64,000 bases of DNA, from the NCBI RefSeq assembly GCF_058153355.1, contig NZ_CM177019.1. One strand, given 5' to 3'. Shown here piece after piece: positions 63,019 through 63,130 of the stretch (the first letter of the stretch is position 1; every line of letters begins with the position of its first letter). The position numbers were made by a program, and so were the translations under genes. The notes beneath the pieces were generated by a model that saw only the letters and a list, made by a program, of their open reading frames with translations, did not search any database and had not been told where the DNA came from.

Positions 63019-63105
63019 TGGTAAGGGGCGACTTTCTAGAAAATATTTTACGTACGTAAAAAACGGGATATTCTGTTAAGAGTGGTTGCTTCGCCACACA
63101 GCTTA

Positions 63106-63130
63106 AACCCGCCTCCGGGCGGGTTTTTTA
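63106..63130 (+). terminator. intrinsic terminator ~90 nt downstream of Q (tR'-like)
   Basis: AACCCGCCtccgGGCGGGTTTTTTAT. Confidence 0.6.

Follow-up and report, generated by a model that had tools for sequence, protein, structure and literature searches.

The last 3 kb of the window (the whole stretch of 64,000 nucleotides, or 64 kb, that was analysed here and to which coordinates refer unless another record is named) are part of a lambdoid prophage of E. coli, in which the gene for a Q-type antiterminator is followed by 199 bp of non-coding DNA. This raises the question of whether so short an interval carries a complete switch for the late genes, as a preliminary description had proposed by analogy with lambda pR'/qut/tR', and at which bases its elements lie. 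We consider it very likely that the region is the pR'-qut-tR' late-gene control cassette of a lambdoid prophage with a Q of the Q21/Q933W family.

The genes run on the + strand in the order DnaB-like helicase, NinH, Q, the non-coding DNA, four tRNAs and an S21-type holin, and seven complete genomes, CFSAN029787 among them, contain loci with 99.8% identity to the prophage region. The Q gene (62638-63018, + strand, with the TGA stop codon at 63016-63018) encodes 126 amino acids, and its identity, already assumed in the preliminary description, was borne out by a full-length profile match to PF06530 (E 4e-54), the family of Q21 and Q933W (10.1101/651190); the RefSeq label is "antiterminator Q family protein". 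Alignment with the solved Q21 structures (6P18 and 6JNX; E 4e-8) covered the N-terminal 80 residues only. At the amino acid level, Q was 85-87% identical to that of Stx phages, and ~82% identical to that encoded in the annotated record of phage 434B, in the segment derived from DLP12; a megablast search against phages matched the Q gene alone (82%). The first tRNA begins at 63218, and the tRNA-Ile(CAT)/Arg/Thr/Gly block (63218-63528, + strand) is the first cargo downstream of the terminator described below. The first late gene, the S21-type (class II) holin, starts at 63820 and runs to the end of the window (63820-64000, + strand; PF04971, E 3e-31); in the 99.8%-identical locus, the genes that come after it encode a lysozyme and a lysis protein. 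The late genes found in the window and in this matching locus therefore lie downstream of the terminator on the same strand. In the window, only the four tRNAs passed the gathering score of Rfam, with no other family; sub-threshold matches over 63058-63135 (20-27 bits against cut-offs of 43-108) were terminator look-alikes.

Two further features of the window were observed. [quoted passage not shown] A perfect 12-bp inverted repeat (ATGAATGATCGC at 63590-63601 and GCGATCATTCAT at 63647-63658, 45 nt apart) lies in untranslated DNA downstream of the tRNAs and before the holin.

Predicted promoter and leader, and the terminator

The AT-rich stretch that had been noted after Q was clear in the base composition: GC content was 29% in 63030-63080, compared with 49.5% in the window. 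A scan for sigma-70 promoters reported none between Q and the hairpin, and the promoter was therefore placed by comparison with homologues. A pattern search of IMG/VR for the leader retrieved at least 120 loci, 89 of which had a PF06530-type Q 0-3 kb upstream. As a control for circularity, loci were also retrieved by the Q protein alone, for two Q classes (the first search gave close relatives only). Of these protein-selected loci, 75 of 80 and 69 of 80 had exactly one copy of the cognate palindrome (see below), located downstream of Q; the five misses in the first class were loci whose sequence stops shortly after Q. Wherever the palindrome was present, it was followed by the -10 element and leader at a fixed spacing, and usually by a terminator. 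Both sets together gave 80 unique modules, in which conservation was scored.

The -10 hexamer of the putative pR' is TATTCT (63069-63074, + strand), followed by the invariant G63075, and aligns with TATCAT in Sp5 and Min27 and with TATGCT in K-12 DLP12. A -35-like TTTACG (63047-63052) is separated from it by a 16-bp spacer, and the pair matches the sigma-70 consensus at 8 of 12 positions. T-12, A-11, T-7, and G-6 were invariant in the 80 modules, while positions -10 to -8 varied freely. The three invariant bases of the hexamer and the start mapped in Sp5 would fit a constitutive sigma-70 promoter, and the weak 8/12 match speaks against one. The elements that had been left unassigned are now placed by homology. 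Upstream of them, an A/T-rich tract (TTCTAGAAAATA; 63034-63045, + strand) is a possible UP-like element; A-tracts occur at the same position in most related modules.

Transcription is predicted to start at A63081 (+ strand; +/-2 nt), 7 nt after the -10 hexamer and homologous to the bracketed A of Sp5 GATAAG(A)GTGG. In Sp5, dRNA-seq located the pR' start and Term-seq a 3' end at a distance of 258 nt from it (Sy et al. 2020, PMC7547250). The second terminator of Sp5 (T-tract at 999-1004 of the Sp5 record, L005) is the sole one with a geometry suitable for the mapped 3' end, which places the start at 744-748 of that record, inside AAGAGT. The stx2A gene is at 1,267,107 in version 2 of the Sakai genome. 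We take its position in version 1 to be 1,266,965. The resulting offset of 142 bp would put the Sp5 start on A746, the counterpart of 63081 in the window, an assignment that depends on the stx2A coordinate taken for version 1 and on terminator geometry. From these homologies, we infer promoter activity and the exact start in the prophage of the window.

The start is overlapped by a -10-like element, TAAGAGT followed by GG (63077-63085, + strand), which is a candidate sigma-dependent pause element and resembles AACGAT-GGG of lambda and the SDPE of phage 21, TAAGCTG. It spans -4 to +3 and can be read in two registers: AAGAGT (63078-63083), which contains the -7 T, and TAAGAG (63077-63082), which does not. 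TAAG at -4 to -1 was present in 80 of 80 modules, as was G+5, and T+3 in 79. Downstream, TTCG (63090-63093, + strand) matches T-N-Y-G, the consensus of scrunched sigma-dependent pauses (PMC9191641), and its distance from TAAGAG equals that of the lambda TTCG from AACGAT. The corresponding positions and the one before them were also well conserved (C+9 in 76 of 80 modules, T+10 in 67, a pyrimidine at +12 in 66, and G+13 in 79), C+15, A+16, and C+17 were nearly invariant, and positions beyond +28 varied freely. Since a conserved -10-like element is combined with TNYG at a lambda-like spacing, a sigma-70-dependent pause is tentatively predicted, with a 12-nt RNA ending at C63092; its position (+12/+13) is assigned from the motif. 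The overlap of the -10-like element with the start and the missing -7 T of the TAAGAG register weaken this prediction. A pause directed by an element at -4 to +3 would be the earliest sigma-dependent pause known.

The same part of the leader may form a 5' RNA hairpin in the minimum free energy fold, GUGGU-UGCUUC-GCCAC (63082-63097, + strand). In the 80 modules, 88% of cells were able to pair, compared with 19-51% when the partner was slid; the differences between modules were wobbles and mismatches, plus a possible register shift in one case, and clean compensatory changes were absent. At 63087 and 63094 (+7 and +14), a change of T+7 to C accompanied one of C+14 to A (18 of 22 modules, compared with 4 of 58), and this co-occurrence could stem from a register-shifted 5' hairpin as well as from plain lineage structure.

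The intrinsic terminator tR' (63105-63129, + strand) is located 88 bp downstream of the Q stop codon and consists of a 9-bp stem with the loop TCCG and six T (AAACCCGCC-TCCG-GGCGGGTTT and T6 at 63124-63129). Six G-C pairs (CCCGCC/GGCGGG) form the core of the stem, and A-U pairs extend it to 9 bp. The hairpin of the preliminary description was thus confirmed in existence but not in its end: the sequence quoted, AACCCGCCtccgGGCGGGTTTTTTAT, corresponds to 63106-63131, one base further than given. The epithet "strong" also suits the predicted structure: the 16-nt core folds at -13.0 kcal/mol, it is followed by the six T, and such sites are rare. In a strict scan (fully paired stem of 6 bp or more that includes 5 or more G-C pairs, a loop of 3-8 nt, and a T-rich tail), tR' was one of four sites found on the + strand of the window, compared with ~0.15 per shuffled sequence. 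A consensus terminator scan of the region did not report the hairpin, probably because it extended the stem into the A/T pairs and left too few T in the tail. The predicted terminated leader RNA (63081-63129, + strand; -23.3 kcal/mol, z = -4.2) would be ~48 nt long. The short RNA that had been called "6S-like" would thus be far shorter than the 194 nt of lambda, as in phage 21.

A hairpin with a T-tract was present in most related modules and ended at +47 to +50 (46 of 75 scored) or at +57 to +67; many had a second, tandem terminator. The stems belong to at least six unrelated sequences (CCCGCC/GGCGGG, CCTCGC/GCGGGG, CCCTGCCA/TGGCGGGG, CCCTGTCA/TGACGGGG, GCCTCGG/CCGGGGC, and CCCCG/CGGGG), indicating that the structure of the terminator is maintained while its sequence drifts. 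In two IMG/VR loci (L067 and L123), compared with a third carrying the same module (L071), the terminator hairpin is precisely deleted (CCACACAG|AAACGGCACAGG); in these natural variants, the late genes would no longer require Q.

Two elements lie between the terminator and the tRNAs. A conserved piece of leader, CGGTACAGGACGTTAAACACGCTGGTGGTC (63142-63171), was found in 39 of the 128 unique modules. At other loci, a further conserved leader and an ORF beginning with MLKQQDMTET come after it; the copy in the window is truncated and the tRNA block takes over, forming a mosaic junction. The second element is a promoter-like site separate from pR', TTTGCA-18-TATTAT (63179-63208, + strand; 9 of 12 matches in the consensus scan), which ends 9 nt before the first tRNA and is conserved in the Stx phages Sp5 and Min27 as ATTGCA-18-TATTAT. 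This site would express the tRNAs of the prophage independently of Q. A separate start site of Sp5, distinct from pR', has been ascribed to the tRNAs (PMC7547250), and the site in the window fits that described by Sy et al.

The palindrome and its co-variation with Q

The -35-like hexamer is contained in the left half of a perfect 16-bp palindrome, TTTTACGTACGTAAAA (63046-63061, with no strand assigned), centred at approximately -28. It occurs once in the window, where 0.13 occurrences are expected, and we propose it as the Q-binding element. Among the related loci, the element at -35 to -20 varied in sequence, but was always an inverted repeat: TTTACG(TA/AT)CGTAAA, GCGTACGC, GCGG-N-CCGC, TTCGT-T-ACGAA, TGTAATTACA, TGTCATGACA, or TGGAATTCCA.

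The class of the palindrome co-varied with the helix-turn-helix of Q in 161 of 161 loci (55 distinct pairs), with zero exceptions. The Q helix CSDG(Y/H/T)IGK was paired with TTTACGTACGTAAA, CSDT(C/H)IGK with TTTACGATCGTAAA, CSDGTIRK with GCGTACGC, KDEKLIRIE with GCGGTCCGC, SEG(K/N)(I/V)R with TTCGTTACGAA, and SH(N/T)HV with palindromes of the TG..A.T..CA types. The match persisted when 0.6-3 kb of unrelated genes lay between Q and the module. On the other hand, identical leaders and terminators were common to different palindrome classes. Shared leaders together with strict pairing indicate that exchange has occurred on the downstream side and never between Q and the palindrome.

Because its class tracks the recognition helix of Q in 161 loci, the palindrome is probably the Q-binding element. 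The candidate is allele-specific, occupies -35 to -20 and is an inverted repeat, unlike the direct repeat of Q21; its position coincides with that of the QBE of lambda and phage 21. A tentative proposal, held with rather less than even confidence, concerns the Q933W/QuuD branch as a whole, to which the Q controlling Shiga toxin 2 belongs as well as that of K-12 DLP12: this branch may use an allele-specific palindromic QBE on the -35 spot, on which two Q protomers would be placed head to head and not in tandem as in Q21, together with a loading pause at +12, the earliest known, directed by a -10-like element overlapping the start. We found no description of the binding of Q to such a palindrome, nor of the proposal as a whole, in the searchable literature.

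The cassette of the window is itself an expected lambdoid late switch, with near-identical copies in other E. coli genomes. The comparison yields base-level coordinates of the promoter, the candidate Q site and the predicted pause site for the Q subfamily responsible for Shiga toxin 2 expression, and natural specificity classes of Q and palindrome could explain the differing toxin output among Q alleles.

Proposed mechanism and alternative readings

The Q gene, -10 hexamer, element over the -35 position, pause motif, terminator and late genes on the same strand are all present, and the reading by analogy with pR'/qut/tR' is supported to that extent at the sequence level. The scheme that they suggest is as follows. 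In the lysogen, sigma-70 RNA polymerase would start at approximately A63081, using TATTCT, the weak -35-like TTTACG and the A/T-rich upstream tract, and would terminate ~48 nt later at the hairpin and U-tract of 63105-63129. Q, once made, would bind the palindrome at 63046-63061. Region 2 of sigma would hold the polymerase on TAAGAGT-GG, causing a pause with a 12-nt RNA at TTCG, and Q would be transferred to the paused polymerase. By analogy with Q21, a nozzle formed by Q at the RNA exit channel would then keep the hairpin from folding, and the modified polymerase would read through tR' into the tRNAs and S21-type lysis genes. Within this scheme, the binding of Q to the palindrome and antitermination are predictions from the conserved arrangement.

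Other readings are conceivable. If there were no promoter in 63019-63100 and late transcription started elsewhere, the hairpin would be the mere terminator of the early-right operon that contains Q; the weak sigma-70 match and the silence of the promoter scan agree with this, and non-antiterminated polymerase arriving from upstream would also stop at the hairpin. We regard this as very unlikely: the three key -10 positions were invariant with a rigid spacing to the leader in the 80 unique modules, and a primary start was mapped in the Sp5 homologue (PMC7547250). Moreover, inserted genes separate Q from the module by 0.6-3 kb in K-12 and in numerous phages, where the module cannot be the terminator of Q. 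The true Q-responsive late promoter might instead be TTTGCA-18-TATTAT at 63179-63208, with the upstream hairpin as an insulator. Although this site is the best consensus match of the region (9 of 12) and is conserved in Stx phages, its start would be 2-3 nt before the tRNA, leaving no space for a pause element or terminator, no Q-specific element adjoins it, it is absent from modules without tRNAs, and the start at its Sp5 counterpart was described as driving the tRNAs and as distinct from pR' (PMC7547250); this assignment also appears very unlikely.

With pR' as the late promoter, the mode of action of Q and the role of the leader may still be read differently. Q on the palindrome at -35 might act mainly as an activator of initiation, or be loaded in the promoter complex, with no pause after escape. 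The palindrome replaces a recognisable -35 element in most classes, the fold of Q21 resembles sigma region 4 (10.1101/651190), the start lies within the candidate pause element, and the distances of the palindrome from the -10 element (5 bp closer than in phage 21) and from the -10-like element (3-4 bp further) are about equal. Against these points stand the activity of Sp5 pR' in lysogens without Q (PMC7547250), the conservation of the leader through +17 with TNYG at a lambda-like distance from the -10-like element, and the terminator that generally follows, which is sensible only for antitermination; activation as the main role of Q is accordingly judged unlikely. It is also quite unlikely that the terminated leader serves, in addition to the switch, as a trans-acting small RNA like StxS. 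Such an RNA would be constitutive in lysogens, is predicted to be well folded (z = -4.2) and has a precedent in StxS (PMC7547250); however, the StxS segment is absent from the window, the 48 nt contain two hairpins and leave ~7 nt single-stranded, no Rfam family was found above threshold, and pause signals at the DNA level would explain the conservation of the leader.

Comparison with known late-gene switches

By sequence, the module of the window is shared with Stx phages. Positions 63040-63129 were 78% identical to 705-793 of Sp5 (E 3e-14), and likewise to the segment of Min27; in Sp5, 933W, and Min27, the palindrome, -10 element, leader and first hairpin were 78% identical to the window over 90 bp, with 85% identity for Q. 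The tRNA promoter and first tRNA are also shared. The Stx phages differ in having ~200 bp extra after the first hairpin, comprising StxS, an Hfq-binding small RNA derived from pR', and a second terminator that was reported as tR' (258 nt). In a blastn comparison of Sp5 700-1180 with the window, only the pR' module and tRNA promoter aligned, ~325 bp between them had no counterpart, and the 74-nt 3' segment of StxS and its terminator were absent; the first hairpin is therefore the sole terminator before the tRNAs in the window. This hairpin is weaker in Sp5 (-8.1 kcal/mol, compared with -13.0 kcal/mol in the window), and since the 258-nt product of Sp5, the StxS precursor, extends past it, the first hairpin of Sp5 must be leaky without Q. 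Two further differences concern Q. The central dinucleotide of the palindrome (AT versus TA) and the Q residue in the SD(T/G) motif differ together. Furthermore, Q of Stx phages is annotated with 144 amino acids and ends inside the palindrome, whereas that of the window (126 amino acids) stops 28 bp before it. In Min27 (1501-1935 of record L002), the 144-aa frame ends at a TAA within the right half of the palindrome, and in another locus (L121) the Q frame runs to the TAA of GATAAGAG. A Q frame ending there means that the coding sequence of Q in Stx phages overlaps its own target promoter.

The module of K-12 DLP12 (2601-2682 of record L006) was 89% identical over 82 bp to 63047-63128 and has the same palindrome; its Q gene, quuD, is of the same class as that of the window. 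It differs in position: quuD lies 1.7 kb upstream of it, with nmpC and IS5 in between, essD follows after 120 bp, and tRNAs are absent. The published essD promoter was considered as support for the palindrome and rejected: primer mapping puts its +1 at approximately 2280 of the same record, which is another site, ~320 bp upstream. We found neither start-site nor 3'-end data for the essD leader of K-12 in the literature. Sp5/Min27, DLP12, and the window have in common TTTACG-NN-CGTAAA, TATNNT, G, (T/A)TAAGAGTGGTT.C.T.G.CAC..AG, and a hairpin with a T-tract, and nothing upstream of TTTACG.

The pR'-qut-6S RNA-tR' region of lambda follows the same logic with an unrelated Q family (PF03589). The initial transcribed sequences are strikingly similar: AACGAT-GGG-TTAATTCGC in lambda and AAGAGT-GG-TTGCTTCGC in the window (module consensus TTACTTCGC). 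The lambda leader is 194 nt long with a pause at +16/+17, compared with ~48 nt and a predicted pause at +12 in the window, and lambda has a -35-like element for region 4 of sigma, of which none was seen in the window.

Phage 21, whose late region comprises pR'21, QBE, SDPE, and tR'21 (Guo et al. 1991, PMID 1704887; Yin et al. 2019; Shi et al. 2019, PMC6606751), shares the Q family PF06530 with the window, while a nucleotide comparison of the two revealed no similarity. The QBE of Q21 is a direct repeat of 8-bp subsites (ATTGAGCA AATGAGCA) beside a consensus -35 element, TTGACA, unlike the palindrome of the window, which sits on the -35 position; the helix-turn-helix of Q21 has a long inserted loop that Q of the window lacks; and the SDPE is at +2 to +8, compared with -4 to +3 for the -10-like element of the window. 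In both, the promoter directly follows Q, the QBE (a candidate in the window) lies over the interval from -35 to -10, and a TAAG... -10-like element is found at the transcript start. In the phage 21 record, the -35 element, QBE, -10 element, start, SDPE, and terminator are all within 85 bp after Q, as compact as in the window, and a leader of ~46 nt is followed by two tRNAs and S21, in parallel with the ~48-nt leader, tRNAs and S21-type holin of the window. Judged by these sequence comparisons, the cassette appears to be an ordinary late switch that most resembles phage 21 in its layout and whose nearest counterparts in sequence are the pR' modules of Stx phages and DLP12.
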